Below are positions 5,609-55,300 of a DNA stretch of 64,000 bases, one piece after another. Positions within the stretch are counted from its first letter, which is position 1; each line of letters opens with the position of its first letter. The stretch lies in the NCBI GenBank assembly GCA_964392785.1, contig CAYMRH010000002.1:797-64796 (forward strand). The letters are read 5' to 3'. The position numbers were made by a program, and so were the translations under genes. Under the pieces are notes generated by a model. It searched no databases. It was not told the origin of the DNA and saw nothing but the letters and a program-made list of their open reading frames with translations. Source of the DNA: an uncultured Brevinematales bacterium (GTDB taxonomy: Bacteria; Spirochaetota; Brevinematia; Brevinematales; JAOACQ01).

Positions 5609-6565
5609 TTACCGGTCGGAAGAAATTCCGGCGGCCAGTTTCAGGGCGAGTGTGATGGCGTTTTTCATGCTGACGGGGTCCGCGCGGTCCTGACCCGCGA
5701 TATCGAAAGCCGTCCCGTGGTCCGGAGACGTGCGGACAATCGGCAACCCCCATGTCACGTTCACGCCTTCTGACAGATGAAGCATTTTGAAAGCCGCCAG
5801 CCCCTGGTCGTGATACATGGCCACGACCATCCTGTACTGTCCCGCGTGGGCTTTATGGAACACAGTATCCGCGGGCAAAGGCCCGTCCACGGGTTCGCCC
5901 CGGTCCCGGAATTCCGCGACCGCCGGACCGATGATCCGTTTTTCCTCCGATCCCAGGAGGCCGTTCTCGCCGGCGTGGGGATTCAACCCGCAGACCGCGA
6001 TTCTCCAGCCGGACGGTCCGTACATGGTCCTGCAGAACGACAGGGCCGCGGACACGGCCGAACGGACACGGCGCCGCGTGAGAGCCCGGCTGACCGCCTT
6101 CAAGGGAATATGGATGGTGGCCAGAAGCACGTTCATCGAGTCGCAGGTGAAGAGCATATGGAAATCCCGGACGCCGAACACGGACGCCAGGTAGGTGGTG
6201 TGGTCGGTGAACTCGGGGTGTCCGGAACCGTGAATCAGGTCCTTGGCGACAGGACCGGTCACTATTCCCGCCGCACGGCCTGTCCGGGTCAGTTCAACGG
6301 CTTTCCGGATAAAGGCAAAGGAAAGGTCCCCTGACGCGGGGGATTTCAAACCGGACGAGAACCGGAATTTTTTCCGGGCTTCGGGTTCCACCACGACCAG
6401 GTCCCACCCTTCTCTTTGGGGCATATACCGGCCCAGAGCGCCCGGTTCGCCGATCACAATCAGACGCTCCCGTTCCCGGGGCTGAAGGGTTTTCAGAGCT
6501 TTCGCGCAGACTTCAGGACCGATCCCGTTCGGGTCCCCGATCGTTACGGCAATCCGGTCATTCAT
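5609..6565 (-). CDS. pdxA: 4-hydroxythreonine-4-phosphate dehydrogenase
   Basis: IAVTIGDPNGIGPE, LNPHAGENG and VRTSPDHGTAFDIAG are PdxA-family motifs. Its start overlaps the bactofilin stop by 8 nt. Confidence 0.85.
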   Translation of the reverse strand: MNDRIAVTIGDPNGIGPEVCAKALKTLQPRERERLIVIGEPGALGRYMPQREGWDLVVVEPEARKKFRFSSGLKSPASGDLSFAFIRKAVELTRTGRAAGIVTGPVAKDLIHGSGHPEFTDHTTYLASVFGVRDFHMLFTCDSMNVLLATIHIPLKAVSRALTRRRVRSAVSAALSFCRTMYGPSGWRIAVCGLNPHAGENGLLGSEEKRIIGPAVAEFRDRGEPVDGPLPADTVFHKAHAGQYRMVVAMYHDQGLAAFKMLHLSEGVNVTWGLPIVRTSPDHGTAFDIAGQDRADPVSMKNAITLALKLAAGISSDR

Positions 6566-6938
6566 TGTACATTTTCAGGATGGAATCCTTGGGTTGGGCG
6601 TTCAGGTTGTTCGAGATCAGGCACCGGCCTTCCAGGACCACCCCGTTCTGGATGATGAGTTCGGGCGTTTTCAGGTCTCCCACCACCCGCGCCGTCGGCA
6701 TCAGCATGACGCGCGTCGTGGCGCGGACGTTCCCGATCACCACGCCCTCGATCACGACGGAAGAGGCCTCCAGGTTCGCCTTGACGCGGCCGCCGGGACC
6801 GATAAAGATCTGGTCCACCCGGAGAACGCTTCCTTCATACTTGCCGTTGATCTGGATCGTCCCGTTGATGAGAAAGCGTCCCTCAAAAACGGACTTGTCC
6901 CCGATCACGCTGTTGACCGCCTCGCTTTTCAATGCCAC
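6558..6938 (-). CDS. bactofilin (polymer-forming cytoskeletal protein, DUF583)
   Basis: 126 aa with repetitive beta-helix windings (IGDKSVFEGRFLINGTIQINGKYEGSV, VVIEGVVIGNVRATTRVMLMPTARVVGDL, VVLEGRC) typical of bactofilins. Confidence 0.8.
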   Translation of the reverse strand: MALKSEAVNSVIGDKSVFEGRFLINGTIQINGKYEGSVLRVDQIFIGPGGRVKANLEASSVVIEGVVIGNVRATTRVMLMPTARVVGDLKTPELIIQNGVVLEGRCLISNNLNAQPKDSILKMYNE

Positions 6939-6948
6939 TGCCGTCTCC

Positions 6949-7770
6949 TCATTCTTCGTCCTCGATTTTTTCCAGGTCGGGTATTTTCAGAAACGCCGTG
7001 AATTCCTTCACGAACTGGTGGAGGTCCATCAGGGCTTTCCGCGCCGTCAGTCCGTCCAGACTGGAATGCTGGCCGTTGATTTCCACGGTCTTCTCGGGGT
7101 CCAGAAGGACCTTCTCCCCCTTTTTTTCCGAAGCGACAATGTCTTCCACGAAGGTCTGGACGGTGTGAAGGAAGCGGCCCGTCTTGATGATGACGTTGCG
7201 GTATTCCTTGGTCCTGACCTTGCCCAGATTGTCCCGGAACGCCTTGTTGTTGTTTGCGTCGGCGCCTTCGATCTGCTCCAGGATATGGCCGTATTCCTCG
7301 AGCGTCCTGACGGTCTGGTGATACAGCGTGAAAAACGTGTCGCGCTGATAGGCATGGCCGTAATCCAGCCTCAAGTTCTGTTCGGACAGCAGGCCCAGAT
7401 ATTCCCGGCCGAAAAAATTCAAATAACTCCAGGTCCAGTTGATTTCCTCGTCGTCGCAGAACATATTGAGGCGCTCGTAATAGACGTTGCGGAGAATCCG
7501 CCTGTCTTCGGCCTTGGGTTTCGAGAGATGGTCCGCGTACAGCTTCAGGTCCTGCTCGGAAATCTCGTATTTTGACAGGTCCGCCGGTGTCAGGAAACCC
7601 GACCGGAGTTTATTCAGGTCCCGTTCGATCGTCTCCAGGGTCCGGAGAGCGGACTCTTTCTTGTCCACTTCCTTGGAGGAAGAATAGATCACGCCGAACT
7701 TTTTCTTGACCTGCTCGATCTTCGCCTCGATATATTCGGCGGCGGTGTCAATCAGAGGAAATTCGGACAT
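6949..7770 (-). CDS. hypothetical protein, predicted helical; no family recognised
   Basis: 273-aa ORF between the FapA-like and bactofilin genes, 10 nt upstream of bactofilin. Lys/Glu-rich with realistic composition. The antisense ORFs here are Arg/Pro-rich junk. Confidence 0.6.
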   Translation of the reverse strand: MSEFPLIDTAAEYIEAKIEQVKKKFGVIYSSSKEVDKKESALRTLETIERDLNKLRSGFLTPADLSKYEISEQDLKLYADHLSKPKAEDRRILRNVYYERLNMFCDDEEINWTWSYLNFFGREYLGLLSEQNLRLDYGHAYQRDTFFTLYHQTVRTLEEYGHILEQIEGADANNNKAFRDNLGKVRTKEYRNVIIKTGRFLHTVQTFVEDIVASEKKGEKVLLDPEKTVEINGQHSSLDGLTARKALMDLHQFVKEFTAFLKIPDLEKIEDEE

Positions 7771-7871: not shown

Positions 7872-9854
7872 TCAAATATTCCGCCGGCGGCCGGTTTCCT
7901 TGAGCTTGTCTTCCATTTCCTTGGCTTTTTCGTAAGGGGCGATCTTGATCAAACCCGCTTCCCGGTAAAAGGTCACGAATTTATAGTCGTTCTTGACGAT
8001 CAGCACGTCGCTTTTGATCTTGATTTTCACCCCGGGATACACCGTTTTGCTGACGGAGATCTTGGCGTCCTTGCCCAGACCTTCCATGTACTCCTGCAAT
8101 TGCCGCAGGTTTTCCTCGAGAGAATCCATCTCCTGTTTCAATTCGTTGTTCTTGAGCGTGAGAACGTTGAACAGGTTCTGCTTTTCCGGCGACAGCGTGC
8201 CCCGACCCATCATCATGGACAGGTTGGAAACCTGGTTCTTGATTTCGGGCCACTCCTTGTTGATTTCCTCCCGGCGTTTCACGATCTCCGCGATCCGGTT
8301 TTCCGCCGTCGGGTCGATCCCGGTTTCGACGTGGGTCTCGGTATAGGCTTCCGCCCCGACATACTTGGCGTTCACCTCATAGAGCGCCCGGACGCGGCCT
8401 CCGGCGATCTGGGACCTCTTGCCGCCGTGGACCAGGACTTTTTTCCGGCACTCGATGTTGGAATGCAGGATCACCTCGGACACGATCACGTACCCGTCCG
8501 CCTTCACGTTGGCGCGCTCGATGAACTTGGCGTAGAGATCCCCCGCGCAGACCACCTTGGCCTCGTCCTTGCCCTGAATCCCCTGGCGCACGATGATGTT
8601 GCCTTCGGCCACCACGCTGGCTTTGCCGATATTGCCCTTGACTTCCACGTTCGCACCGGAATACACCTTGAACGTGTCGTTCACGTTGCCGTACACGATC
8701 ACGTTCCCGGGGAAATTGATGTCTCCCGTGGTCAGGTCCACGTCGCCGCTCACCTCGAACACCGGCTCCACCTGGATCTTGTTGTTCTTGAAGATCACCT
8801 GCCCGTTGATGTCCGCGATGATCTGCAGGCCGTCGCTGGACAGGTGCGTGTTCGGCCCGCACATGAGCTTCACGTCTTTTCCGTCGCGGGCGGGGATCAC
8901 GCGGCCGGTCACGGTCTTTCCCGCGCGGCCTTTCTCGGGCGGGCTCTTGGTCGCGAGAACCTGTCCCACGACCACGCTCTGGACGATATCGAGCTTGTGG
9001 AAGTCCACGCTGCCGTCGGCCGCCACCTCGAATTTGACTTCGTCCTTGTCCGTTTTGAAATGATACTTGACCGTGGCGTCCTTCCCCTCGACGGGCATGT
9101 CGCCTTCGGCGATCAGGATCGGCATATTGTAGAGTTCGTTTTCCACCGCTTCGGCAATGGCTTTGTCCTTGATCCCGAACACCACACCCTTCTGCCGGAG
9201 GGCCGTCACCACTTCCTCCACGTCCACGACCCGGCCGTATTTTTCGGGCTTCGTAAACGTGCCGAACACTTTCATGTCGTCGGGAAAGGTCTGGAGCTGG
9301 AACCGGCCGTCGTAAGAAGACGGCTGATAGTCGCCGATCCGGATATTTTTCCCCGTGGGGTTTTCCGCCTCACGGCGGACCGCATTTTCGTTGTATTTGA
9401 GGATTTCGCGCGCCATGAGCTGGCCCTGGATTTCCTGGATCCCGGCATAGCGGCCGGAACCTTTCGGCGGTTCCACGCGCAGGAAAATTCCCTCCCGGGT
9501 CGCGAAAATCCTGAACCGGCCGTCCTGGTTGGGATTGACAACGATGTCTTCAAACGGCACCGCATCATCCCCGGATTTCAGGAATTCCCCGTCGAACGAA
9601 ACGTGCTCGGACACCTTGACCAGGATCCGGTGGGGTTTCCGCCCGAAACCCAGGAAACCGTTGGACCCTCGCTCCAGGATCTCGTATTCCAGATTGACAA
9701 TGCTGACTTTCATGGCGTCCGCGGCGCTTTTCAGGGCATCCTCGATGGAGAACGCATAAACTTCCACTTCGGAGTATTCGGAACGACCGCCGCCGCGTGA
9801 CGAACCGATGTCCTTGTCCTGGTCCGCGCTCAGAAGACTTCTCAGATCCGGCAT
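7872..9854 (-). CDS. FapA-family (DUF342) protein
   Basis: 660 aa. N-terminal Jag/KH-like module (VEVYAFSIEDALKSAADAMKVSIVNLEYEILERGSNGFLGFGRK). Central/C-terminal beta-helical segment (GDVDLTTGDINFPGNVIVYGNVNDTFKVYSGANVEVKGNIG...) and a C-terminal coiled coil, as in flagellar-assembly-protein-A-like DUF342 proteins. Confidence 0.7.
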   Translation of the reverse strand: MPDLRSLLSADQDKDIGSSRGGGRSEYSEVEVYAFSIEDALKSAADAMKVSIVNLEYEILERGSNGFLGFGRKPHRILVKVSEHVSFDGEFLKSGDDAVPFEDIVVNPNQDGRFRIFATREGIFLRVEPPKGSGRYAGIQEIQGQLMAREILKYNENAVRREAENPTGKNIRIGDYQPSSYDGRFQLQTFPDDMKVFGTFTKPEKYGRVVDVEEVVTALRQKGVVFGIKDKAIAEAVENELYNMPILIAEGDMPVEGKDATVKYHFKTDKDEVKFEVAADGSVDFHKLDIVQSVVVGQVLATKSPPEKGRAGKTVTGRVIPARDGKDVKLMCGPNTHLSSDGLQIIADINGQVIFKNNKIQVEPVFEVSGDVDLTTGDINFPGNVIVYGNVNDTFKVYSGANVEVKGNIGKASVVAEGNIIVRQGIQGKDEAKVVCAGDLYAKFIERANVKADGYVIVSEVILHSNIECRKKVLVHGGKRSQIAGGRVRALYEVNAKYVGAEAYTETHVETGIDPTAENRIAEIVKRREEINKEWPEIKNQVSNLSMMMGRGTLSPEKQNLFNVLTLKNNELKQEMDSLEENLRQLQEYMEGLGKDAKISVSKTVYPGVKIKIKSDVLIVKNDYKFVTFYREAGLIKIAPYEKAKEMEDKLKETGRRRNI

Positions 9855-9942: not shown

Positions 9943-11289
9943 CTAGATCGGGTTCCGGCGCACGAACGCCGGCGGGATATTCAGTTCCGCCCGGTATTTC
10001 GCCACGGTCCGGCGGGAGAGCTGGATCCCCTTCTTCCGGAATATCTGCACGATCCTGTCGTCGCTGAAGGGATCGTTTTTGTCTTCCGCCTCGATGAAAC
10101 TTTTCAGCGTTTCCTTGACGCTCCGGGACGACACGTTGTCGCTGCCCACGTTCGCCGAGAAGAAACGCTTCAGGTTGATGATCCCCTTGCCGGTCTGGAT
10201 ATACTTGTCCTTCACGACCCGGCTGACGGTGGATTCATGGACATTTAATTCATCGGCAATATCCTTTAATTTTAAAGGAACCTGATGCTGGCTGCCCTTG
10301 AGGAAAAAATCCCTCTGTTTTTCCACGATTTTCAGGATCACCTTGAAGATAATCTCCTTGCGGGATTTGAGGTTTTCGATCAGCAGCCGGGCCCGTTCTA
10401 TATGGTCCTTCAGGAACTGCTTTTCATCCCGCCCCAGAACCGTTTTTTTCCCCTTATAGACCTGGTTGTTGTAGAGCTCCAGGGTATGGCGGTTCAGCTT
10501 GACGTCGGGGATATATTCGTCGTTCAGGACGATCTGGATGCCGTTCTCGTCAACGCTCACGGAGGCGTCCGGAATGACATAAAGCGGAAATCCCGTGGAA
10601 AACCGGGCGGTCGGTGTCACGTTCAGTGTCCTGATATGGCCGATGGCCTTCTCGACGGCCTCGAATTTCACCTTGAGTTCCGATGCGATCCGGGTGTAAT
10701 TCTTCTTTTCAAGAAATTCCCGGCACTCATCGAGCATCCGGTATTCCAGGCTGTCCCGCCCGAATTTTTCGGCGGCCTGGACAAGGAGATACTCCTGCAG
10801 GCTGTAGCACCCGACCCCGATCGGGTCCAACCGGATGATCTTCTGACGGGTCTGTTCGAGTTCGTCCGTCGTGATATCGGTGCCTTCCACCAGTTTTTCC
10901 GGAGGAATGGGCTGAAGAACGCCGTTTTCGTCGGGATTCTGGAGAAAGCCCCGGTCGTTGATGCTGGACAGGACCAGTTCGGCGGCGCGCTTCTCCCGGT
11001 CCGAAAACGACAGCCCCGTCACCTGTTCCATCATGAATTTGAAGAGGTTGGCGTCGTAAACGGAAATGTTTTCCATGAAGGACTTGTTGTCAAAATCACC
11101 CTTGGACATACGCGGAACGGTTTTCTTGTTTTCCGACTTTTTGCGCTCCAGAAGCAGCGCGGGATTCTCCTTCACCTCTTCCTCGAGTTTTTCCTTGAGT
11201 TCGGTGGCGGTCAGAACCACCAGTTCAAGCGTCTGAATCAGGGCGGGAGAAATGATCTGCCTCTGCTCCTGATTCATCTGGATCTTCAT
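9943..11289 (-). CDS. rpoN: RNA polymerase sigma-54 factor
   Basis: N-terminal Gln-rich region MKIQMNQEQRQIISPALIQTLELV, core-binding region, and C-terminal HTH plus RpoN box (SRRTVAKYRAELNIP). Start trimmed from the track's 11463 to the ATG at 11289 because the upstream 58 codons are not sigma-54-like. Confidence 0.85.
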   Translation of the reverse strand: MKIQMNQEQRQIISPALIQTLELVVLTATELKEKLEEEVKENPALLLERKKSENKKTVPRMSKGDFDNKSFMENISVYDANLFKFMMEQVTGLSFSDREKRAAELVLSSINDRGFLQNPDENGVLQPIPPEKLVEGTDITTDELEQTRQKIIRLDPIGVGCYSLQEYLLVQAAEKFGRDSLEYRMLDECREFLEKKNYTRIASELKVKFEAVEKAIGHIRTLNVTPTARFSTGFPLYVIPDASVSVDENGIQIVLNDEYIPDVKLNRHTLELYNNQVYKGKKTVLGRDEKQFLKDHIERARLLIENLKSRKEIIFKVILKIVEKQRDFFLKGSQHQVPLKLKDIADELNVHESTVSRVVKDKYIQTGKGIINLKRFFSANVGSDNVSSRSVKETLKSFIEAEDKNDPFSDDRIVQIFRKKGIQLSRRTVAKYRAELNIPPAFVRRNPI

Positions 11290-11443
11290 GGATACCCCGC
11301 TGGCGGTCCCGGACTTCAGATCAAGCGGCCGCGGACCGTTCGGCAACAGGTTATAACAAGACACGGTGAAAATCAAGGGACGGGGCGGGACGTTGATTTT
11401 GACGCCGTTTCCGCCTATACTGATTGATCCTGAGGAGCGGGCC

Positions 11444-12592
11444 GTGTTCGAAAAAATCGACAAGTCTTTTTTTACCGTGGTCCTGATCCTGATGCTTATG
11501 GGGATCGTGTTCGTTTACAGTTCCAGCTACTATATTTCCATCCGCTACACGGGCGCCCCGTACCACTTTACCGTCCGGCAGATCATCTGGGCCGCGGCTT
11601 CACTGGCCGTCATGGCGCTCTTCATCCGTTTTGATTACCGGAAACTGCCGCGATTCGTCAAACCCATGATCCTGGCGACCGTTCTCCTGCTCCTGGCCGT
11701 CTTCCTTCCCGAAGTGGGCCGGGAAAGCGGCGGGGCCAGGCGCTGGATCGATTTCCGCCTGTTCTCGTTCAACCCGTCCGAACTGGCCAAATTGACGGTC
11801 ATTGTTTACCTGGCGTCCATCCTGAACAAAAAACAGTCCAAACTTTCTGATTTCACGTTCGGGATCCTGCCCCCGTTTCTTCTGGTCTGCGTCATTTTCT
11901 TCATCATCCTTCTCCAGTCCGGTTTCTCCACGGCCGTGCTGCTGCTGTGCCTGGCCTTCATTCTCTTTTTCGTGGGCGGGGCGTCCATCAAATATTTCGG
12001 ATTGATGCTGATCCCCAGCGTCCCGATTCTCGCGGCGCTGGTGTTCCAGGTTTCCTACAGGAAGGCCCGCATCCTGTCGTTCATCAACCCCTGGGAAGAC
12101 GCCACCGGAAAAGGATACCACATCATCCAGTCGCTCAAATCCTTCGGCGAAGGGGGCATCCTGGGCGCGGGTCTGGGGAACAGCATGCAGAAAATGACCC
12201 GCCTCCCCACGCCCCATACCGATTTCATCTACTCCGTCATAGCCGAGGAAATGGGCCTGGTCGGCGCGACCGTCATCGCGGCCCTTTACCTTTTTTTGTT
12301 CGTCCGCGGGGTGCTGATCGCGCGCAGGTGCCCGGACCGCTTCGGCCAGCTCCTGGCGTTCGGCATCGTTTCCCTGATCACCTCCCACGCGCTGCTGAAC
12401 ATGGCCATCGCGACCGGCCTGGTCCCGCCCACCGGCGTCTCCCTGCCGTTCATCAGTTCCGGCGGGTCCTCGATGATGGTCCTGGCGGCGGGCAGCGGAA
12501 TGCTCCTGAATATTTCCGCCCGTAATCCGGTCCAGCGGGCCGCAACGGCCTACGAGGAGATCGGTTCGATCATCGAAGGCGACGAATCCTGA
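11444..12592 (+). CDS. FtsW/RodA/SpoVE-family peptidoglycan glycosyltransferase
   Basis: Multi-TM protein with FNPSELAKL, GKGYHIIQSLKSFGEGGILGAGLGNS and LPTPHTDFIYSVIAEEMG motifs. Start placed at GTG 11444 (GAGGAG 6 nt upstream). The track ORF begins at 11366. Confidence 0.8.
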   Translation: MFEKIDKSFFTVVLILMLMGIVFVYSSSYYISIRYTGAPYHFTVRQIIWAAASLAVMALFIRFDYRKLPRFVKPMILATVLLLLAVFLPEVGRESGGARRWIDFRLFSFNPSELAKLTVIVYLASILNKKQSKLSDFTFGILPPFLLVCVIFFIILLQSGFSTAVLLLCLAFILFFVGGASIKYFGLMLIPSVPILAALVFQVSYRKARILSFINPWEDATGKGYHIIQSLKSFGEGGILGAGLGNSMQKMTRLPTPHTDFIYSVIAEEMGLVGATVIAALYLFLFVRGVLIARRCPDRFGQLLAFGIVSLITSHALLNMAIATGLVPPTGVSLPFISSGGSSMMVLAAGSGMLLNISARNPVQRAATAYEEIGSIIEGDES

Positions 12593-12636: not shown

Positions 12637-12664
12637 TTTACTTTTGCCGCAAATGTCTTATAAT
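12637..12664 (+). promoter_or_regulatory. sigma-70-like promoter candidate
   Basis: TTTACT (12637..12642), 16-nt spacer, TATAAT (12659..12664). Followed by GGAGGAGGGG upstream of the ATG at 12720. Confidence 0.4.
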
Positions 12665-12719
12665 AACGAAAGCAGATTGGGGAATCTGTCCATCATCGTT
12701 ATCATGGAGGAGGGGAATC

Positions 12720-13340
12720 ATGAAAATCTCAGACATCACGCTCGGAAAATCGGTCCTGGAAAACCTGATCGACAAGAAGAAAGACCGCCCGGTTTCTTCT
12801 TCGTCCCGGCTGACCGAACACCTCAACGCCCGCGGCGATTCGTTTGACCCGGAACGTCGCGTCCATCACGACATGGCCCGCATGAGCGAACTGCAGAAAA
12901 ACTTCGCCAGGAATTCCGCCGGCCTGCAGGGTCTTGTCAGTATGAAAAAAATGGTGGACGAACACGACCGGCTCCCCGCGCTGGACCGGAATTACCAGAA
13001 ACTGACGCAGGAACTTTCCGCTATCGTGGCGTCGACCAAATACCAGGGAGAAAACGTCATCAGCTATCTCAGCACCCAGGTGCGGGACGAGAAATCCCTG
13101 TACACCCTGAAAAACGGCCTGGACTCGGAAATCCGGAACGTGCAGCTGAAAATGTCCGCCGAACGGAAGGATATTGCCAGCTACCTGGTGCGCGAGGAAA
13201 ACCTGGCCAGCGTGAGCGCCGGCATTTCCCCCGACCGGAACCTGGAAACGGTCCGGCGCCGGATGCAGGACGCTGACGCCGCGGGCCCGCTGGAAACGCT
13301 CCATCGGAACATCCCGAAGATCTCGGCCCTGCTGGGTTAG
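12720..13340 (+). CDS. small flagellin-superfamily-like protein (divergent, truncated); function uncertain
   Basis: 206 aa with a strong Shine-Dalgarno. By eye it aligns to flagellin terminal helices. SSSSRLTEHLNARGDSFD resembles E(K/R)LSSGLRINxAxDDAAG. ARNSAGLQGL resembles RNAQDGISL. TKYQGENVISYL resembles TxFNGxxLLxG. RRRMQDADAAGPLETLHRN...ISALLG resembles SRIRDADMAKEMxEFTKN...LSLLR. There is no central domain. Confidence 0.4.
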   Translation: MKISDITLGKSVLENLIDKKKDRPVSSSSRLTEHLNARGDSFDPERRVHHDMARMSELQKNFARNSAGLQGLVSMKKMVDEHDRLPALDRNYQKLTQELSAIVASTKYQGENVISYLSTQVRDEKSLYTLKNGLDSEIRNVQLKMSAERKDIASYLVREENLASVSAGISPDRNLETVRRRMQDADAAGPLETLHRNIPKISALLG

Positions 13341-13425
13341 AAACCGCCCGCTGAAAAAGCACACCGCCTGCCGCCGTTTGCGCGACAACCGGACAGGCGG
13401 AATCTCAGGAAGGGGATCAGCTCCG

Positions 13426-14430
13426 ATGACTGATCTGAAACGGCTGTTTTCCGAGCCCGACGCCTCCCCCGTGTTCATCACGGCTGAAATCGGGATCAAT
13501 CACCTGGGCCGGGTGGACCTGGCCCGGCGTCTGATTGAAGCCGCCGGACGCGCGGGCGTTGACGCCGTCAAGTTTCAGGTTTTCCGTACCGAGAAATTCT
13601 ACAACAAACGGCTGGCGCCGGACGCGTTCGGGCTTTTCAGCAGGTTCGAACTGTCCTTTGACGATTTTCTCGGTTTGAAAGAATTCGCGGAATCGGCGGG
13701 TTTGATTTTCTACGCCACACCCCTGGACACGGATTCGCTCGATTTCCTGGTTTCTTCGGGCTGCCCCCTGGTCAAAGTGGCCAGTTCGGACATCACGAGC
13801 GAGCCGTTCCTGGCGGCGATCCGAGACCGTGTCCGCAAGCCGCGCACGCCGGTGATTCTGTCCACGGGATTTGTCAGTCTGGACGCCATTCGCAGGGCTT
13901 CCCGCATTTTCGCGGGATTGCCTCTGGCCCTGGAATACTGCGTCTCGAAATATCCGGCCGATCCCGGGGATTTTGACCTCAATTTTATCGGAACGCTGCG
14001 CCGGGAATTCGGCCGCTCCGGAACCGTGACGGGATTTTCCGACCACAGTCAGGAAAACCTTCTTTCGCTTTCGGCCGTCGCGCTGGGCGCCCGGCTGATC
14101 GAGCGTCATTTCACCACGGACCGTTCCCAGGAAGGCGCGGACCACGCCATGTCGCTGGACCCGGCCATGATGTCCGACCTCGTGCGCGGGATCCGCGAGC
14201 TGGAAAGCGCTCTCGGGCCCGGAATAAAAAGAATCACGGTTTTCGAGTCCTCGGCCGCCGGATCGTCCATGAGAGGGTTGTACGCCTCGCGGGACCTCCG
14301 CGCGGGCGAACAGGTCCGCCCGGAGGATCTGGTTCTGCTCCGGCCCGGCCGCGGGGTGACCCTGAAAAAATACCGTTCGATCCTGAACGGAAAAATCGGA
14401 AAGGACATGGGCGCCTATGAAGAGCTTTAA
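13426..14430 (+). CDS. NeuB-family nonulosonic acid (sialic/pseudaminic/legionaminic acid) synthase
   Basis: FITAEIGINHLGRVDLARRLIEAAGRAGVDAVKFQ is the NeuB signature. C-terminal SAF domain (RGLYASRDLRAGEQVRPEDLVLLRPG). Start trimmed to the ATG at 13426. Confidence 0.8.
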   Translation: MTDLKRLFSEPDASPVFITAEIGINHLGRVDLARRLIEAAGRAGVDAVKFQVFRTEKFYNKRLAPDAFGLFSRFELSFDDFLGLKEFAESAGLIFYATPLDTDSLDFLVSSGCPLVKVASSDITSEPFLAAIRDRVRKPRTPVILSTGFVSLDAIRRASRIFAGLPLALEYCVSKYPADPGDFDLNFIGTLRREFGRSGTVTGFSDHSQENLLSLSAVALGARLIERHFTTDRSQEGADHAMSLDPAMMSDLVRGIRELESALGPGIKRITVFESSAAGSSMRGLYASRDLRAGEQVRPEDLVLLRPGRGVTLKKYRSILNGKIGKDMGAYEEL

Positions 14431-15382
14431 AGTTGCCCTCAAAAACACGACCGAGGAATTTCTTCTTACCGAAGACGTCTGGCTGTGCCTGAACGTCAAG
14501 AAAGACGGTTGCGCGTTCTTCAAGAAGGACAACAAGAACGAGCTGCTGTTCGGAATTTCCCACACCCAGAAGTTCCTTCCGGCCGCCCAGAATATCCCGG
14601 CCAGCGGTCTCCGCGATTCGTTCGATCTGCTGTCCACCAACTACAACAGCGTCTGCCTGTATTATCTCAATTCCTCTGAACGCGTGATCCAGTCCTACAT
14701 CCCGCTGGACATCCACACCGTCCTGTTCCGGAGACGGGAGGGAGATTACGTCGTTTTGAACGACCACCCCCAGAAGATCCGTTATTCCGAGAACGACGTC
14801 CTGGCGGGCTTCAAGGGCAAGCTGTCCGCGAACGAACTGGACAAGCTGAGGGACGTGGTCCTGAAATCCGAAAGAATCTGCTACACCGCCCTGAACGACG
14901 CGGCCGCTTTCCTGGAATCGTACCATTCCGACGTTTTTCCGGTCTTCTGGGTCGACTTCTCCGAGCACCAGGCCTTCTCTTTCCCCATCAAGAGCTCGCT
15001 AAAAACGGTTTCCCTCACCATCGACATGATCAAAAACAAGCTGGTGCGGCACGATTCGGAGAAGATCTGGCAGATCGAAACCGTGCTTCACGAGGCCCTG
15101 GTCAACGCCATCACCTACGGAAGCGAACTGGACCACACCAAGCACGTTTCCGTGAGTTACGAGATGGGGCGCAAGGGCCTTCGCGTCATGATCCGGGATC
15201 TGGGAGCCGGTTTTGACGTCCACAACATTTCCGTGCCGGTGGGCCACGAGGCGCTGGAAAAGATTTCCGGCCGGGGCATCTACATCATGAAGAAATTCTC
15301 GGACGCCCTTTTCTTCAACGAAAAAGGCAACGAACTTCTGCTCTTTTTCCACCTGGGTAGGGACCAAAACCCCGCCTCTTAA
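14417..15382 (+). CDS. RsbW/SpoIIAB-like ATP-binding serine kinase domain protein with an unknown N-terminal domain
   Basis: The C-terminal ~130 aa carry the HATPase_c_2 pattern (ETVLHEALVNAITYG, MIRDLGAGFD, GRGIYIMKKFSD). The N-terminal ~190 aa are unrecognised. Overlaps the NeuB-like stop by 14 nt. Confidence 0.65.
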   Translation: MKSFKVALKNTTEEFLLTEDVWLCLNVKKDGCAFFKKDNKNELLFGISHTQKFLPAAQNIPASGLRDSFDLLSTNYNSVCLYYLNSSERVIQSYIPLDIHTVLFRRREGDYVVLNDHPQKIRYSENDVLAGFKGKLSANELDKLRDVVLKSERICYTALNDAAAFLESYHSDVFPVFWVDFSEHQAFSFPIKSSLKTVSLTIDMIKNKLVRHDSEKIWQIETVLHEALVNAITYGSELDHTKHVSVSYEMGRKGLRVMIRDLGAGFDVHNISVPVGHEALEKISGRGIYIMKKFSDALFFNEKGNELLLFFHLGRDQNPAS

Positions 15383-15446: not shown

Positions 15447-15475
15447 TTGATATTTCCCGCCCACCCTGCTATAAT
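15447..15475 (+). promoter_or_regulatory. sigma-70-like promoter candidate for ferredoxin-serA
   Basis: TTGATA (15447..15452), 17-nt spacer, TATAAT (15470..15475). GGGAGG Shine-Dalgarno before the ATG at 15511. Confidence 0.5.
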
Positions 15476-40489: not shown

Positions 40490-42151
40490 ATGAAAGACCT
40501 GCTGTCCGGCAACGAGGCCATTGCCCGCGGGGCGTTCGAGGCCAACGTTTGGGTCGCCGCCGGTTACCCGGGAACTCCCAGTTCTGAAATCATCCAGACC
40601 CTGAGCGAACAATACCCCGAGATCGACTCCGAGTGGAGCATAAACGAAAAAGTGGCCCTGGAAGTGGCTTTGGGCGCCTCCATCGCGGGCGTCCGGTCCA
40701 TCGCCACCATGAAGCATGTGGGCCTGAACGTGGCCTCCGACCCGCTCATGACCGCCTCCTACACGGGCGTGCGGTCCGGACTGACCGTAGTCGTGGCGGA
40801 CGACCCCGGCATGCACTCCTCCCAGAACGAGCAGGATTCCCGCCACTGGGTCAAGTTCGGCCGGCTGCCGCTCCTGGAACCCTCCGACAGCCGGGAGGCC
40901 CTGGACTATACCAAGCTCTCCCTGGACCTGTCAGAACAGTACGACACGCCGGTCATCCTGCGCGCCGTGACGCGGGTGTCCCACACGAAGACCGTCGTCA
41001 ACCTGTCCGAAGCCAAACGCCGTTTACCGCCCTACTCGTACCGGAAAGACCCCGCCAAGTTCGTGATGGTCCCGGCCAACGCCATACCCCGCCACCGGGC
41101 GGTCCTGGAACGCTGGGAGAAACTGAAAACCGCGTCCGAAAAGTTCAAGGGCCATAAAATCGAACACCGCGGCACATCCGTCGGGATTGTGACACACGGC
41201 ATGATCTACCATTACGTCCGGGAAGCCCTGCCGGACGCCAGCGTGTTCAGCGTGGGAATGTACCCCGTTCCCGTTCAGGCCATCCGCAAATTCGCGTCCC
41301 GGGTTTCCAGGCTGTTCGTGGTGGAAGAATTGGACCCGGTCATCGAGGACGAACTGCGGGCCAACAGCCTGAAACTCACCGGCAAAGAGCTGTTCCCGGA
41401 GGCCGGCGAACTGTCCGTGGAACTGATCCGGAACGCGTTCGCCAAACCCAAAAAAAACGCCGCGCGGAAAACATCCGGCGCCGCGAAAACGGTCGCCGCC
41501 GCTCAACCGGCGCCGCTGCCGGGACGCCCGCCCGTCCTCTGCAAGGGCTGCGGTCACATACCGGTGTTCGAGGTCCTGCGGGACCTGGACGCCACCGTTT
41601 TGGGCGATATCGGCTGCTACACGCTGGGCGCGCTGGCGCCCTATAACGCCATGGACACCACCATCTGCATGGGAGCCAGCGTGGGAAACGAGATCGGATT
41701 CAAGAAACTGGGGCAACTCCACGGCCAACTGCCGCGGTCCGTGGCCGTGATCGGGGATTCCACGTTCTACCATTCCGGCATGACGAACCTGCTGGACGCG
41801 GTCAGCAATAAAATCCCGATCACGCTCGTGATCCTGGACAACCGGATCACGGCCATGACCGGCCACCAGACCAATCCCGGAACCTGCCTCAATTCCAAAC
41901 TCTGCGCGGCCGGCGAAGTGGACCTGGAAGCGCTGTGCCGCGGCTTGGGCGTCAAACGCGTGCGGACCGTCAACGCCTACCAGAAAGAGGACGTCCGCCG
42001 GGCCGTCCTGGAGGAATGGGACGCCGCCGAACCGTCCGTCATCATAGCCCGGGAAATCTGCGTGGTCAGCGAGTCCCGCATGAAGCAGATTCGGGATCGG
42101 CTGAAGGCGGCCGGGGACAGTTCGCCCGGCCCCACGGGAGGCGCCTCATGA
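40490..42151 (+). CDS. iorA: indolepyruvate:ferredoxin oxidoreductase alpha subunit
   Basis: MKDLLSGNEAIARGAFEANV, GYPGTPSSEI, DDPGMHSSQNEQDSR and the TPP-domain CKGCGH motif. Start trimmed to the ATG at 40490. No CxxCxxCxxxCP dicluster motifs are visible. Confidence 0.8.
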   Translation: MKDLLSGNEAIARGAFEANVWVAAGYPGTPSSEIIQTLSEQYPEIDSEWSINEKVALEVALGASIAGVRSIATMKHVGLNVASDPLMTASYTGVRSGLTVVVADDPGMHSSQNEQDSRHWVKFGRLPLLEPSDSREALDYTKLSLDLSEQYDTPVILRAVTRVSHTKTVVNLSEAKRRLPPYSYRKDPAKFVMVPANAIPRHRAVLERWEKLKTASEKFKGHKIEHRGTSVGIVTHGMIYHYVREALPDASVFSVGMYPVPVQAIRKFASRVSRLFVVEELDPVIEDELRANSLKLTGKELFPEAGELSVELIRNAFAKPKKNAARKTSGAAKTVAAAQPAPLPGRPPVLCKGCGHIPVFEVLRDLDATVLGDIGCYTLGALAPYNAMDTTICMGASVGNEIGFKKLGQLHGQLPRSVAVIGDSTFYHSGMTNLLDAVSNKIPITLVILDNRITAMTGHQTNPGTCLNSKLCAAGEVDLEALCRGLGVKRVRTVNAYQKEDVRRAVLEEWDAAEPSVIIAREICVVSESRMKQIRDRLKAAGDSSPGPTGGAS

Positions 42152-43695
42152 ACGTGGCCACCGTTTCCTTCCTGGTGGGGGCGAGTTTCGGTTTTTTCCT
42201 GACCATCCAGTACGTCATCTTCGTGCTGTTTCTGTCCAAGCGCGACGAAATCAAGAAGACCAAGGAAGACCTTTTTTACATCATCCTGATCGGGATCGCC
42301 ATCTGCCTGGCGGGCATTTTCGGCTACCTGTCCCAATCCGGGGAATTCCAGGCGCTCGCGGCCGTGTTCCGCAAGGCGCAGCTGATCGGCTCCATCCTGA
42401 CCGTCAATTTTTACGTCATGCTCCTGCGCTTTATCCTGCTCTCGATCAAGGACATGACCTTCGTGGAAACGGACGAATACAAGGGCTACACGCGCCGGTA
42501 CCTGATATTTTTCACCGTCGTGTCCGTCGCGGCCATACTGGCCGTCGCGCTGTTCGACATCACCTCGCGCCCGTTTTCGCGCCCGGGATTCCCGAACTTC
42601 ATGAACATCCCCTCGCTGGCCTATCTGGCCCTCGTAATCGTGGTGGAATCGCTCCAGTTCCAGAAAATCCTGCGCAAGGAAATCGGCAAGATCACGCCCA
42701 TCAACTTCCTCCGCTACGTGACCATCTACGGAAGCGGGATGATCGCGCTGCTCTTCTCTTTTGCCGAAATCACTTTCGCGTTCTTCAACCGGACGGACAC
42801 CGTGGCCGCGTTCGGATCCTTCTTCATGTACGGCATGGGGTTTCTGGCCGTGGGGCTGTCGCTCAACCTGATTTTCGAGTACATGGAAGTGCTGACGCGG
42901 GTCAGCGAAACCAACAAAAAACTGACGGACCTGAACCGGAAAATCATGGACGACGTCCGCACCGCCCAGTCGCTCCAGATCTCGCTCCTGCCCCTGGACA
43001 AGCAGAAGGTGATCCAGAGCCACGTGGACATGGAGATCTCCTACATGCCCATGCAGAGCGTGGGGGGAGACTATTACGACTTCTACCTGCTGGACGAAAA
43101 CAAGGTGCTCCTCTTCATCGGGGACGCGTCCGGTCACGGCGTGTACGCCGCCATGATCTGGGCCATGCTGAAGGTGGAGGTGGAGGAGCTGATCGAGGAC
43201 CAGCAGTTTACGGACCTGTCCCAGGCGTTCACCACCCTGAACCAGCGGATCACGCGCATCCTGGAGAACACCTATTCGTACGCGACGCTGTTCTCCTGCC
43301 TGATCGACCTCTCCTCGTCCACCGTGAGTTATATTTCAGCCGGACACACCGACCAGCTGTTCTTCTCCCTGGAGGGCGAGGCCGTGAACCGGATCCGCAA
43401 CAAGAACCCCATTATCGGGACGTTCAAGAACGCCCAGTTCAACGCGGACACCATCTCCTACAAACCCGGGGACATGCTGCTCCTGTTTTCCGACGGGATC
43501 GTGGAAGGAACCAACCCGGAAGGCGAGCAGCTCGGCAAGGAACGCCTGGAAAACATGCTGCTGGAAGTGGGGCAGGACACGGCCAATTCCGCGAACGCCT
43601 CCCTGGTCATCGGGAACCTGCTCATCAAGCTGGAAGAATTTTTCGAGGGCACCATCCAGAAGGACGACCGGACCCTCATGGTCATCAAACTTTAA
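42148..43695 (+). CDS. 7-TM sensor fused to a PP2C/SpoIIE-family serine phosphatase
   Basis: The ATG at 42148 overlaps the iorA TGA (ATGA). About seven hydrophobic helices span the first ~330 aa. The PP2C motifs then follow: SVGGDYYDF, FIGDASGHGVYAA, LFSDGIVE and DDRTLMVIKL. Confidence 0.8.
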   Translation: MNVATVSFLVGASFGFFLTIQYVIFVLFLSKRDEIKKTKEDLFYIILIGIAICLAGIFGYLSQSGEFQALAAVFRKAQLIGSILTVNFYVMLLRFILLSIKDMTFVETDEYKGYTRRYLIFFTVVSVAAILAVALFDITSRPFSRPGFPNFMNIPSLAYLALVIVVESLQFQKILRKEIGKITPINFLRYVTIYGSGMIALLFSFAEITFAFFNRTDTVAAFGSFFMYGMGFLAVGLSLNLIFEYMEVLTRVSETNKKLTDLNRKIMDDVRTAQSLQISLLPLDKQKVIQSHVDMEISYMPMQSVGGDYYDFYLLDENKVLLFIGDASGHGVYAAMIWAMLKVEVEELIEDQQFTDLSQAFTTLNQRITRILENTYSYATLFSCLIDLSSSTVSYISAGHTDQLFFSLEGEAVNRIRNKNPIIGTFKNAQFNADTISYKPGDMLLLFSDGIVEGTNPEGEQLGKERLENMLLEVGQDTANSANASLVIGNLLIKLEEFFEGTIQKDDRTLMVIKL

Positions 43696-52375: not shown

Positions 52376-55300
52376 CTACCGGACCACGATGATCGTGCCG
52401 CTGTACACGTTCTGCCCGGCCTGGATCCGGTAAATATAAACGCCGCCTTTCACGGCATAACCTTCGTCGTCATGTCCGTCCCAGTACACTTCGCCCTGGC
52501 TGTAGGACCCGCTCCGCTCGAAACTCTTCACCAGATTGCCGCGCAGGTCGTAAATCTTGACCGTGTACTGGTCGTAAGCCCGGTCGAACACCACGCTGAT
52601 CTTGGCGTTGGCCGTGGAACGGCTGCCGGACCGCGGCGTGAACACTTTCGGCTCCACCCGGACCTGGGAGAATCCCGGCACCGTCGTCGCGGGTACGGAC
52701 CCTTCGCCGAATACGGCGTAATACTTGTGCAGGTAACCCGCCTGGATCGTGACCGTATTCGCGGACGTGTCCACCGCGCCGCCCAGACGGATCCATTCCT
52801 TGGTCATGGGCCGCCAGTAATAAACCGCCAGCTTGCTCTCGTCCCATCCCTGCGCCGCGACATTCGAATCCTCGTAATGAAGGACGATCAGGACGTCATT
52901 GGTCAGTTCCTGTTCCTCCATCGGGCTGTCGCTCAAGTCCCGCATATCCACCCAGTACATGGTCACGCTCACCGGGTCCGCGGGCGAGGCAATCGTCTTG
53001 CTCCGGGTCGAGGCCGTCTGCATATCCGTCTCGAACATGTTGGTCAGCCAGATGTCGATGGAGAAATTGCGGATCAGGGTGTTCGGATAAACCGTGATCC
53101 TGGTCGCGCTGTCCTGCTGGGCCAGAATCTCCTGCGGGGACGTGTCCCTCGCGTTCAGGGGCGAATGCCTCAGTACGTTGGTTCCGATGTTCGTCACGGC
53201 GTTCGTCTCGACGATGACCGCCGCCAGGCGGATGTCCTTGTACCGGGGAGACGTGATCACCACGTCGTAGGACCCGCCGGGCACGAAGTCCAGCAGATAG
53301 AAACCGTCGGACGCAGCCGTGCCCAGGATATTGGTCCCGAATTTGTTCGTAACCAGAGTGTCCGTTCCGCTCTGCACGACCTTGACCGACGCGTTCAGGT
53401 AACCCGGAAGGACCGCGCCCGCGACCCGCCCGAAGTCCGGAACTTCCACGGCCAGCGTGCGGGTGGAGGATTCCGGCAGAAGCGTCTCTTCCACAAACGG
53501 CGAACCCGCGAACCGGATCAGGGCCGGCATCGGAACAACGGCGTTCGTGGCCAGGGAATACCGCACCGCGATCCCGACGTTGTCAAACGTCCTCTTCTCC
53601 ACGGGCGTCGCGCCGTAATCCAGGCGGATCCAGTTGGTCCCGCCGAAGTTGGTGATCACCGGCGTCAGGTTGGAACTGGACATCCGGGAGGAGATCAGCC
53701 GGTCCACCGTCATCGCGTTCGTATCGAACGCGATCCACGCCGTCTGGATGCCGAACGCGTAGGATTCGTTCTCGATCTTGTAGCCGATCACCGCGTTGGT
53801 GTCCAGCGTATAGACAACGGGCCGTTCGTAAATATAGGTCCGGCTCTTCTGCTCGGGAATCAGCATGGACAACAGCAGCGTTTCCGGCGCCGTCGTGGAC
53901 GCCGCGGAGTCAACGGCCGAACTCTCGTTGTTCGCGACGACTGTCACCGGATAGGATCCGCTGTCCAGGATCAGGTAATCCAGATCGAAGCTGACCGTGT
54001 CCGTCAGGGACGTCGCGAACCCGCCCGGCAGTTCGTTGGTGTAGTAAATCGAAATCACGTTGCTCGTGACCTGTATGGACGTCGCTTCCGTTGTCAACAG
54101 GTCGCTGGCAAACGATCCGGCGACCGTGTTGGTCAGGGCGAAAGGCGACGCCGGCGGCACGGGCAGAACGATCCGAACAACGGACAGGGAATTGGCGCCC
54201 GACCCGGTATTGACCAGCCGCAGGCTCAACGTGTTGGTCTGCCGGACGGACGCGTTCGTGCAGACGTAGAAGAACGTGTTGATCAGGTGCGCTTCCAGCG
54301 ACGGAGACGGCATGACAAAGGACTGGTTGAGGGCGTTTAAAATGCTCTCCCGGGCCCGCCCGAATCCCGTCCCGTTGTCGGCTCGCACCGTCCAGATATT
54401 GTTGTTGGAAATCCCCTTCTGGAGCCCGTCCATGACACGGAGAGTGATCCGGTCCGAGCTGTTTTTCGGAAGGGCCCCGCCGCCAAAGTTGGTCACGTAA
54501 ACCGTCGTGTTGCTCACAAAAGCCACGCCGTTGGAACTCGCGGCCGACACCACGTTGGTATAAATCGCCGGCAGGTCCACCCTTAAGGACAGGGTGGGCA
54601 ATACGCCCGACGAATTGTTGTTGTAAAACAGCACAAGATCGTTGGTGTATTCCGTGGCCAGCACCGAAAGCGGCGTCACGCTCGCGCTCGGCGGGTTCAC
54701 CACGTTCACGTAATGATCGTACGGGGACAGATTGGTCGCGTCGTTGGTGTGCTGGCCGTTGTAGAATCGGGCCTGCACGAATACGTTGGATTCAAAGCCC
54801 GCTTTGTTGGTCAGAACCATCACCACGGTGTCCGTCATCTGGCTCGTGAAATTGGAATAATCCAGACGCAGCACGCCCGCCGCGTAATTGGTGTTCGTCA
54901 CCAGCGGCGAAAGCTGGAACGTCATGGCCGCGTTCGTGAACACCGCCGGAATGCTGATCCACGCCTGCCGGGGCCTGTTGGATCCCTGGCCCGTGTTGAT
55001 GAAACGGTAGGTCGCCGTGAATGTCCCGTGGGTCGTGAACACCTCGTTGTAATCGAACCTGGCCCGGACGGACGGCTGCGGCATCACAAACGCGATCAGG
55101 TTGGTCCCCACCTTGACGTCCGCCGCCGCGAAAGTTTCCTCGGACGTATAGTAATTCGCCATCACCGAAATCCAGACGTTCGTGTCCCCCAGATCCAGAC
55201 TGTCCGGAACGGTCAGGGTGACGATGTCGTTCGTGTCAATCACGAAAACGTTGCTGGCGTAGACCAGTTCCACGTAATTGGTCCCGTCCATGTTGGTCCA

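Follow-up and report, generated by a model that had tools for sequence, protein, structure and literature searches.

Why should a small protein that recalls flagellin be encoded beside a sugar synthase and a kinase, in a stretch of DNA with no other flagellar structural gene? The question is raised by a locus in a 64,000-nucleotide (nt) stretch of contig CAYMRH010000002.1, from an uncultured Brevinematales bacterium. This whole stretch is called the window here, and all coordinates are window positions (Table 1). The initial annotation described an open reading frame (ORF) for a protein of 206 amino acids (aa) as a miniature flagellin, placed a NeuB-family nonulosonic-acid synthase gene and a kinase gene behind it, and offered three readings of the first product: a relic, a regulatory decoy or the subunit of a filament. 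The 206-aa ORF was confirmed, and we call its product p206; the second gene is referred to as NeuB or gene 2, and the third as gene 3. All three lie on the forward strand as a compact unit. Judged by its sequence, p206 is not a flagellin by any curated or database-wide criterion. According to its predicted structure, it very likely has a core like domain D1 of flagellin. We tentatively favour the view that p206 is a non-polymerising mimic of flagellin D1 through which the handling of flagellin would be tied to the supply of sugar, the kinase providing the signalling output. The anatomy of the genes, their synteny, the promoter, the domain assignments and a weak but consistent likeness to flagellin D1 are shown by the data; any role of the trio in flagellin handling or glycosylation is one that we infer.

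Conservation of the three-gene unit

All relatives of p206 that were found come from metagenome-assembled genomes (MAGs) with the label Brevinematales, Brevinematia or Spirochaetota. When 1.84 billion representative proteins were searched exhaustively with phmmer, only 23 relatives were returned, all of ∼200 aa and none of them a flagellin; the family alignment and profile used throughout have 28 members. p206 represents a new orphan family, which no Pfam model covers and to which no source gives a name. We found no description in the literature of this family or of the combination of the three genes.

Synteny was compared between the window, nine GTDB species genomes, three JGI metagenome contigs and two further assemblies. 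The order p206–NeuB–kinase was kept in all 14 distinct orthologous loci of sufficient length for the comparison, so the possibility raised in the initial annotation, that the trio would prove not to be conserved, was not borne out. The p206 sequences themselves have diverged to 24–53% identity across the clade with this synteny conserved. The start of gene 3 falls within the final 14 nt of NeuB, in line with the overlap of the two downstream genes reported in the initial annotation, and this 14-nt overlap is kept in essentially all loci, which argues for translational coupling of NeuB and gene 3. The genes flanking the trio vary between loci: one lineage has two extra genes between the FtsW/RodA-family gene and p206, two loci have no FtsW/RodA match upstream of the trio, one locus is without the ferredoxin and serA genes, and another is without the ferredoxin gene. 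On these sequence comparisons, the trio is a three-gene operon restricted to Brevinematales/Brevinematia spirochaetes.

In one MAG contig from ENA/GTDB (L001/L005, 11611-12553), the kinase gene is split by a frameshift into pieces of 225 and 76 aa. An independent Logan assembly of the same organism (L002, 7954-8895) has the kinase gene unbroken (313 aa), and the frameshift is most likely an assembly error rather than the mark of a pseudogene.

The conservation of the locus bears directly on whether p206 is a decaying, functionless flagellin relic, as its small size and extreme divergence from flagellins might suggest. An intact ORF of ∼200 aa with invariant residues is present in 28 of 28 family members, and the promoter, the Shine-Dalgarno sequence and the synteny are conserved in a clade in which p206 itself has diverged to 24–53% identity. 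The intact ORF, the invariant residues and the conserved expression signals together lead us to reject the relic, to which we give almost no credence.

p206 and flagellin domain D1

The structure of p206 was predicted with AlphaFold2 from the 28-sequence alignment. The core was modelled with high confidence (predicted local distance difference test score (pLDDT) >90 for residues 50–160) and comprises helices at residues 44–83, 92–105 and 124–166 with a short β-hairpin at 107–112. In this model the order of elements is that of flagellin D1, i.e. ND1a, ND1b, hairpin and CD1. When the model was compared with 350,542 PDB chains using Foldseek, the top matches were five chains of Helicobacter pylori HP1076 (3k1h, 3k1i_C/D and 6lea_C/D; probability 0.97–0.99, target-normalised TM-score 0.65–0.67, E 0.26–0.63, root mean square deviation 4.9–9.3 Å). 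These were followed by flagellins of Bacillus cereus and Bacillus subtilis and, lower, by Caulobacter FljK and B. cereus FlgL. The structure prediction, proposed in the initial annotation as a check, thus gave a D1-like topology with HP1076 and flagellin at the top of the ranking; the E-values were all >0.1.

A second line of evidence comes from profile comparison. Alignment of the p206 profile with a profile of 25 short flagellins by hhalign scored 25.4 (pairwise E 0.007), compared with 13.5 ± 2.5 for column shuffles, none of which reached it in 150 trials, and 14.4 for a reversed-profile control. Block shuffles, which preserve the local motif, reached the score in 2 of 150 trials. Most of the signal comes from one p206 motif, (D/N)Y..LS.EL..IV..TK(F/Y).GE.VIS, which aligns with flagellin Q.E...L..EI.RIA..T.FN..LL, covering ND1b and the start of the hairpin. 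Within it, the p206 core carries L..EL..I...TK(F/Y).GE collinear with the conserved flagellin ND1b motif (L..EI.RIA..T.FNG..LL), and the segment alone scored 29.6 against 8.7 ± 2.0 for shuffles (0/100). At a relaxed threshold the alignment ran collinear to the last residue, placing ERK.IAsYLV on flagellin qRa.LGAyQNR and NI..LLG on flagellin VL.LL(R).

Searches with single sequences pointed in the same direction. Among 24,736 Pfam models, Flagellin_N (PF00669) was the most recurrent sub-threshold match (4 of 28 members, best E 0.0084), and among 18,950 NCBIfam models it was the lateral flagellin LafA (4 of 28 members, best E 0.0029). LafA was also the sole NCBIfam match of the p206 of the window, a faint one with E 0.017 and 14.5 bits where the cut-off is 365. 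Taken with the predicted fold, the features in common with flagellin are a predicted helix/helix/β-hairpin/helix topology like that of D1, the ND1b motif L..E(I/L)..I...T.(F/Y).G, an ER..(I/L)(A/G).Y motif collinear with the start of flagellin CD1, and an end in LL(G/R). With ∼200 aa, p206 is shorter than the shortest flagellins retrieved (253–273 aa). On balance, we incline to the view that p206 descends from the flagellin superfamily as a distant member that has changed greatly.

The by-eye alignment of p206 to both ends of flagellin in the initial annotation was sustained in part. The segment TKYQGENVISYL and the helix that precedes it are conserved throughout the family and form the part that matches flagellin ND1b and the start of the hairpin. 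The segments SRLTEHLNARGDSFD and RRRMQDADAAG are specific to the window, only D40 being conserved in the 28-member family. ARNSAGLQGL has a conserved counterpart in the family, KN..SL.GL, which is not significantly flagellin-like. The C-terminal correspondence did not hold: 12 of 120 shuffles equalled the score of the C-terminal half, and 23 of 100 reached the score of the C-terminal end. A further candidate identity, a FlgM-like anti-σ28 factor, was prompted by the MKI... start and a D-S-v-x-l motif and was rejected (hhalign probability 0.2% against B. subtilis FlgM, a weak test).

The most conserved stretch of p206 is the hairpin and the loop that follows, G110-E111-x-V-I-S-Y-L-S-T119-x-V-x-D123-E-K-S-L-Y-T. 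In the hhalign register, this loop would correspond in position to the glycan-bearing D1 loops of Treponema denticola FlaB. Both ends of the protein, MKI.DI..GK..LE.L..KKK at the N-terminus and NI..LLG at the C-terminus, show sequence conservation and have low confidence in the model; they are probably disordered, a pattern typical of partner-binding or export segments. A D1-like core between conserved termini that are predicted to be disordered is also what would be expected of a protein with export or chaperone signals. p206 might therefore be exported by the flagellar type III system, as a minor structural or junction component of the periplasmic flagellum or as a secreted non-structural flagellin like FlaC of Campylobacter jejuni, possibly glycosylated. 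Its LLG end, like that of flagellins, and a strong ribosome-binding site, which implies abundance, fit such a role. Axial assembly needs D0 heptad regions and a Flagellin_C region, and here p206 falls short: no D0 region is detectable, the LSSG.RIN.A.DDAAG region is absent, and Flagellin_C (PF00700) matched neither the p206 of the window nor any of the 28 members. FlaC-type proteins, unlike p206, still match the flagellin Pfam models. In addition HP1076, the best fold match, is non-polymerising (PMC7248283). We regard export as quite improbable, and the filament subunit proposed in the initial annotation is likewise unlikely, given that no D0 segments or Flagellin_C region can be detected.

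Among the readings in the initial annotation, the regulatory decoy fits best, and HP1076 is a direct structural precedent for it. HP1076 has high structural homology to flagellin D1 and binds FliS at the flagellin D1 site (PMC7248283). Both HP1076 (PDB 3K1H, 3K1I, 6LEA) and p206 are small soluble proteins (171 and 206 aa, respectively) with a helical core resembling D1, and neither is a flagellin by sequence. HP1076 is restricted to ε-proteobacteria (PMC7248283), and p206 is likewise lineage-restricted. The likeness is at the level of predicted fold, with no sequence relationship shown between the two. They differ in that expression of HP1076 is RpoN-dependent, whereas p206 has a σ70-type promoter and no σ54 motif; that no adjacent NeuB or kinase gene is reported for HP1076, whereas p206 has both; and that p206 has long conserved terminal extensions, unlike HP1076. 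If p206 is a true D1 mimic, it would be the second, independently evolved example after HP1076 and, unlike HP1076, one whose genetic context is strictly conserved and consists of genes for a nonulosonic-acid synthase and for a partner-switch kinase.

The proposal that p206 is a mimic draws on three pieces of background. In T. denticola, filaments do not assemble without the O-linked nonulosonic-acid glycan on the D1 loops of FlaB (PMC13439194). Flagellins are glycosylated in the cytoplasm, in some cases with the help of small adaptors such as GlfM (bioRxiv 10.1101/2023.12.03.569772), and HP1076 competes with flagellin for FliS (PMC7248283). From the literature on the conservation of spirochaete flagella, we assume that Brevinematales have periplasmic flagella. 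In the mechanism that we envisage, p206 would have kept the ND1b motif and the order ND1a/ND1b/hairpin/CD1, whereas its D0 helices would have been lost beyond recognition, and it would have conserved termini of its own. In the cytoplasm it would occupy a site on FliS, FliW or a flagellin glycosyltransferase, as HP1076 does on FliS. NeuB would supply the nonulosonic acid that spirochaetes O-link to FlaB D1 loops, and gene 3, translationally coupled to NeuB, would give the module a partner-switching or phosphorylation output. The context of the trio would in this way yield testable hypotheses about how spirochaetes coordinate the O-glycosylation, chaperoning and expression of flagellin.

GlfM, the adaptor of the flagellin glycosyltransferase Maf-2, offers a functional analogy. 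Like p206, it is a small helical protein whose gene lies beside sialic-acid-type sugar genes (bioRxiv 10.1101/2023.12.03.569772). GlfM is needed to connect flagellin with the glycosylation machinery, whereas for p206 such a role is proposed only. The two also differ in structure and setting: GlfM is an 89-aa four-helix bundle like FliS/FliT and flanks maf, whereas p206 is D1-like and has no maf nearby.

A series of observations weighs against p206 as a D1 mimic. The link to flagellin consists of sub-threshold statistics and a predicted structure. The p206 of the window had no Pfam match, with none to flagellin, FlaG or FlgL at E up to 1, no curated flagellin model of Pfam or NCBIfam was matched above its cut-off, and the 28-sequence profile found nothing relevant among PDB sequences. 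The hhalign alignment with flagellins described above has a probability of 5%, and neither the C-terminal half, the C-terminal end nor the termini of p206 show significant flagellin similarity. With no D0 or C-terminal similarity either, p206 cannot be classed within the flagellin family as the miniature flagellin of the initial annotation. The Foldseek matches all had E 0.26–2.5, and long helical bundles draw false matches. Pfam scans of ∼45 window ORFs found no flagellar structural gene, as already stated in the initial annotation, and no other nonulosonic-acid pathway gene; there was no glycosyltransferase or CMP-sugar synthetase near the trio, and no flagellar gene within 10 kb of the trio in relatives. 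The neighbours of the trio are housekeeping genes (FtsW/RodA, ferredoxin, serA, eda). There is no STAS gene in the operon, which holds p206, NeuB and the kinase only (the rest of the genome was not searched). Finally, loss of hp1076 in a null mutant leaves motility unaffected (PMC7248283), and the precedent is thus itself without a defined function.

The synthase, the kinase fusion and their possible relation to p206

The assignment of gene 2 to the NeuB family was borne out by a PF03102 match with E 2.9e-58 (197.6 bits against a cut-off of 22.1) and intact motifs. ATG 13426 is preceded by the ribosome-binding site GGAAGGGG and is the start used in public gene calls (334 aa); it is more likely than TTG 13378 to be the true start. 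Among solved structures, B. subtilis SpsE is the best match (1vli, E 9e-45), and structures of NeuB and PseI rank next. GFSDHS, IERHFT and GADHAMSL are conserved in the alignment to SpsE; they contain SDHS, E.HFT and DH, which we take to be the metal-binding and catalytic motifs, after Neisseria meningitidis NeuB. The thresholds for an equivalog-level assignment to NeuB or PseI were not reached (TIGR03569, 247 against 399.65; TIGR03586, 185 against 340.25). Like NeuB, PseI, LegI and SpsE, gene 2 has a full-length NeuB domain, metal-binding His motifs and a C-terminal SAF/AFP-like domain, which is marginal (SAF 21.3 bits). Unlike these comparators, it lies outside any Pse, Leg or Neu pathway cluster. 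Its sequence suggests that gene 2 probably encodes an active nonulosonic-acid synthase.

An active synthase need not serve the flagellum. If the flagellin likeness of p206 is convergent or due to chance, p206 would be a lineage-specific helical protein in an operon that makes and regulates a nonulosonic-acid glycan of the cell envelope. The glycan would sit on a lipoglycan, a capsule-like layer or a surface protein, the kinase would control NeuB, and p206 would have a structural or adaptor role. We consider this the main rival explanation, possible if doubtful. It accommodates the fact that all database-wide statistics on p206 are sub-threshold, and that the neighbours of the trio are envelope or housekeeping genes, with FtsW/RodA directly upstream and none of them flagellar. 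NeuB-family enzymes commonly serve capsule or lipooligosaccharide synthesis, and SpsE, the best solved match of gene 2, is a spore-crust enzyme; furthermore, NeuB is translationally coupled to the kinase and not to p206. What chance or convergence explains poorly is that Foldseek, shuffle-controlled hhalign and the recurrent hidden Markov model matches independently single out flagellin among thousands of candidates. The argument from FtsW/RodA is also weakened, because this gene has its own transcription unit, lies two genes from p206 in one relative and is unmatched upstream in two loci. Were the flagellin likeness convergent all the same, the trio would be an ordinary lineage-specific operon of unknown function.

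Gene 3 encodes the anti-sigma-type serine kinase domain predicted in the initial annotation. Residues ∼195–312 form an RsbW/SpoIIAB-type GHKL kinase domain (PF13581, HATPase_c_2, E 1.7e-17, 64.1 bits against 27.4), which matched RsbW and SpoIIAB structures in Foldseek and in which the N, G1 and G2 boxes (E..NA..G, D.G.GFD and SGRGIY) are invariant in 14 orthologues. The N-terminal domain, left as unknown in the initial annotation, is present and can be described further as a degenerate PP2C-like domain. It spans residues 1 to ∼190 (14417 to ∼14990) with AlphaFold2 pLDDT ∼80–90. Its best Foldseek match was Mycobacterium tuberculosis Rv1364c, RsbU+RsbW (3ke6, E 4.7e-10), followed by RsbX (3w40, E 1.2e-5) and, more weakly, by 2pk0, SpoIIE and RssB, which has an inactive PP2C-like domain. 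Gene 3 had no Pfam match to PF07228 (SpoIIE), and no Asp is invariant in residues 1–190 of the 14 orthologues; the domain is therefore probably a pseudo-phosphatase with a regulatory or binding function. A word-indexed search for homologues of this domain outside the clade gave close relatives only, and a metagenome scan added three orthologous loci but nothing more distant. PDB entry 9qih, a protein from a spirochaete that contains an RsbW-like ATPase domain, matched the kinase domain only and was uninformative; the sequence library names this entry SenB, and the structure library names it 'response regulator LvrC from Leptospira'.

The domain order of gene 3, PP2C-like and then HATPase_c_2 kinase, is the same as in Rv1364c. 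Pseudomonas aeruginosa HsbR is likewise a PP2C-RsbW fusion that regulates partner-switching. Gene 3 differs from such fusions in having no conserved catalytic Asp and no PAS, REC or STAS domain, and we found no description in the literature of such a gene coupled to a NeuB-family gene.

These features raise the possibility that p206 is a non-STAS substrate or partner of the RsbW-like kinase, with phosphorylation of a conserved Ser or Thr in the invariant GE.VISYLST loop switching its partner and so controlling a sigma factor or other regulator. The loop in question (G110-E111...S115-Y116-L117-S118-T119...D123) is the most conserved part of p206, the ATP-binding boxes of the kinase are invariant, and the operon has no STAS gene. 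Fusions of a PP2C domain to a kinase, Rv1364c among them, are components of partner-switching circuits, and P. aeruginosa HsbR signals through FlgM. However, the known targets of RsbW-type kinases are STAS domains, a fold that p206 does not have; the phosphatase-like domain is without the conserved metal-binding Asp; and contact between p206 and the kinase is only putative. We therefore think this explanation unlikely.

The D1 mimic and the kinase substrate could also be combined, the trio then being a glycosylation checkpoint for the spirochaete flagellum. p206, O-glycosylated or phosphorylated on the invariant ISYLST loop, would report the supply of NeuB product to the kinase, which would gate the expression or export of flagellin through a sigma factor, FliS or FliW. 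This scheme is highly speculative and we hold it to be very improbable. If true, it would make a flagellin decoy the sensor in a partner-switching circuit without a STAS component.

Expression signals and gene neighbourhood

The features of the locus and its surroundings are listed in Table 1.

Table 1. Positions of the trio, its expression signals and other genes in the window
Feature	Position	Strand	Description
p206	12720..13340	+	206-aa orphan protein, ORF read from sequence
NeuB-family gene (gene 2)	13426..14430	+	334 aa; alternative TTG start 13378
Gene 3	14417..15382	+	321-aa fusion, PP2C-like domain and RsbW/SpoIIAB-type kinase
Operon promoter	12637..12664	+	σ70-type; TTTACT, 16-nt spacer, TATAAT; 10/12 in consensus scan
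p206 5′ leader	12672..12715	+	7-bp hairpin, then Shine-Dalgarno
Next promoter	15447..15475	+	σ70-type; TTGATA, 17-nt spacer, TATAAT; 11/12 plus upstream TG
FtsW/RodA-family gene	11366-12592	+	Directly upstream of p206
rpoN	9943-11463	-	RpoN box RRTVAKYR in ORF translation
FapA/DUF342 gene	7872-9854	-	Pfam match
Gene of unknown function	6949-7770		273 aa
Bactofilin gene	6558-6938
ORF with phosphatase domain	41935-43695	+	586 aa; C-terminal SpoIIE/PP2C domain
Giant ORF	52376-60214	-	2612 aa
Giant ORF	60221-63943	-	1240 aa

Position 12637, where the region described in the initial annotation begins, falls on the −35 hexamer of the operon promoter. When 13 upstream regions were compared, both promoter elements (−35 and −10) could be aligned in each of them. 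A pattern search of the 13 loci found no σ28 or σ54 motif at the promoter position upstream of p206, and TGGCAC-N5-TTGC occurred upstream of p206 in none of them. A σ70-type promoter is compatible with a flagellar role, since σ70 also drives several flagellin genes in spirochaetes (PMC9481697). At the other end of the trio, the next promoter precedes the ferredoxin gene, which is the next gene downstream, and so delimits the trio as a unit. There is no convincing terminator between the three genes.

The leader of p206 contains a hairpin at 12672-12689, read from the sequence and folded, with 7 bp and a GGGG loop. It is followed by a very strong Shine-Dalgarno sequence, GGAGGAGGGG, at 12706-12715, and a very strong GGAGGAGGG aligns across the 13 upstream regions. 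In 7 of 13 leaders (L005–L010 and L015), an AAAAGGA(T/G)TT element lies ∼20–45 nt upstream of the start of the p206 homologue and ∼15–25 nt before the GGAGGAGGG Shine-Dalgarno; the window has the GGGG-loop hairpin instead. GGA motifs are present in 7/13 leaders, and the arrangement with two GGA motifs resembles that of CsrA-controlled flagellin leaders. On RNA folding, the predicted leader hairpins were no stabler than shuffles, and for this reason a CsrA-type two-site leader is left as a mere idea.

The rpoN and FapA/DUF342 genes lie upstream of the trio, in agreement with the initial annotation, and are on the opposite strand; pdxA is also among the genes upstream. In the mechanical ORF calls, rpoN and FtsW/RodA have a head-to-head overlap of ∼100 nt. 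Since FtsW aligns with its relatives only from residue 21–29 or beyond, both genes probably start further inside the called ORFs, and the arrangement suggests that the two genes probably share a short divergent promoter region. The FapA gene stands in a string with the bactofilin gene, the 273-aa gene and rpoN, and its product has a Jag_N domain (E 2.3e-13) N-terminal to FapA_N and the FapA β-solenoid.

Elsewhere in the window, the 586-aa ORF has a C-terminal SpoIIE/PP2C phosphatase domain (PF07228, E 1.2e-37), which by its sequence makes it a second partner-switching-type component of the window. As called, it overlaps the preceding thiamine pyrophosphate (TPP)-enzyme gene by ∼200 nt, and its true start is therefore probably later. 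Two giant ORFs lie next to each other near the end of the window. The 1240-aa ORF, the one of the two covered by the domain scans, gave weak matches to CarboxypepD_reg and to an FlgD_ig-like Ig domain, both below the gathering score. To judge from their sequences, both probably encode giant surface or adhesin-like proteins.

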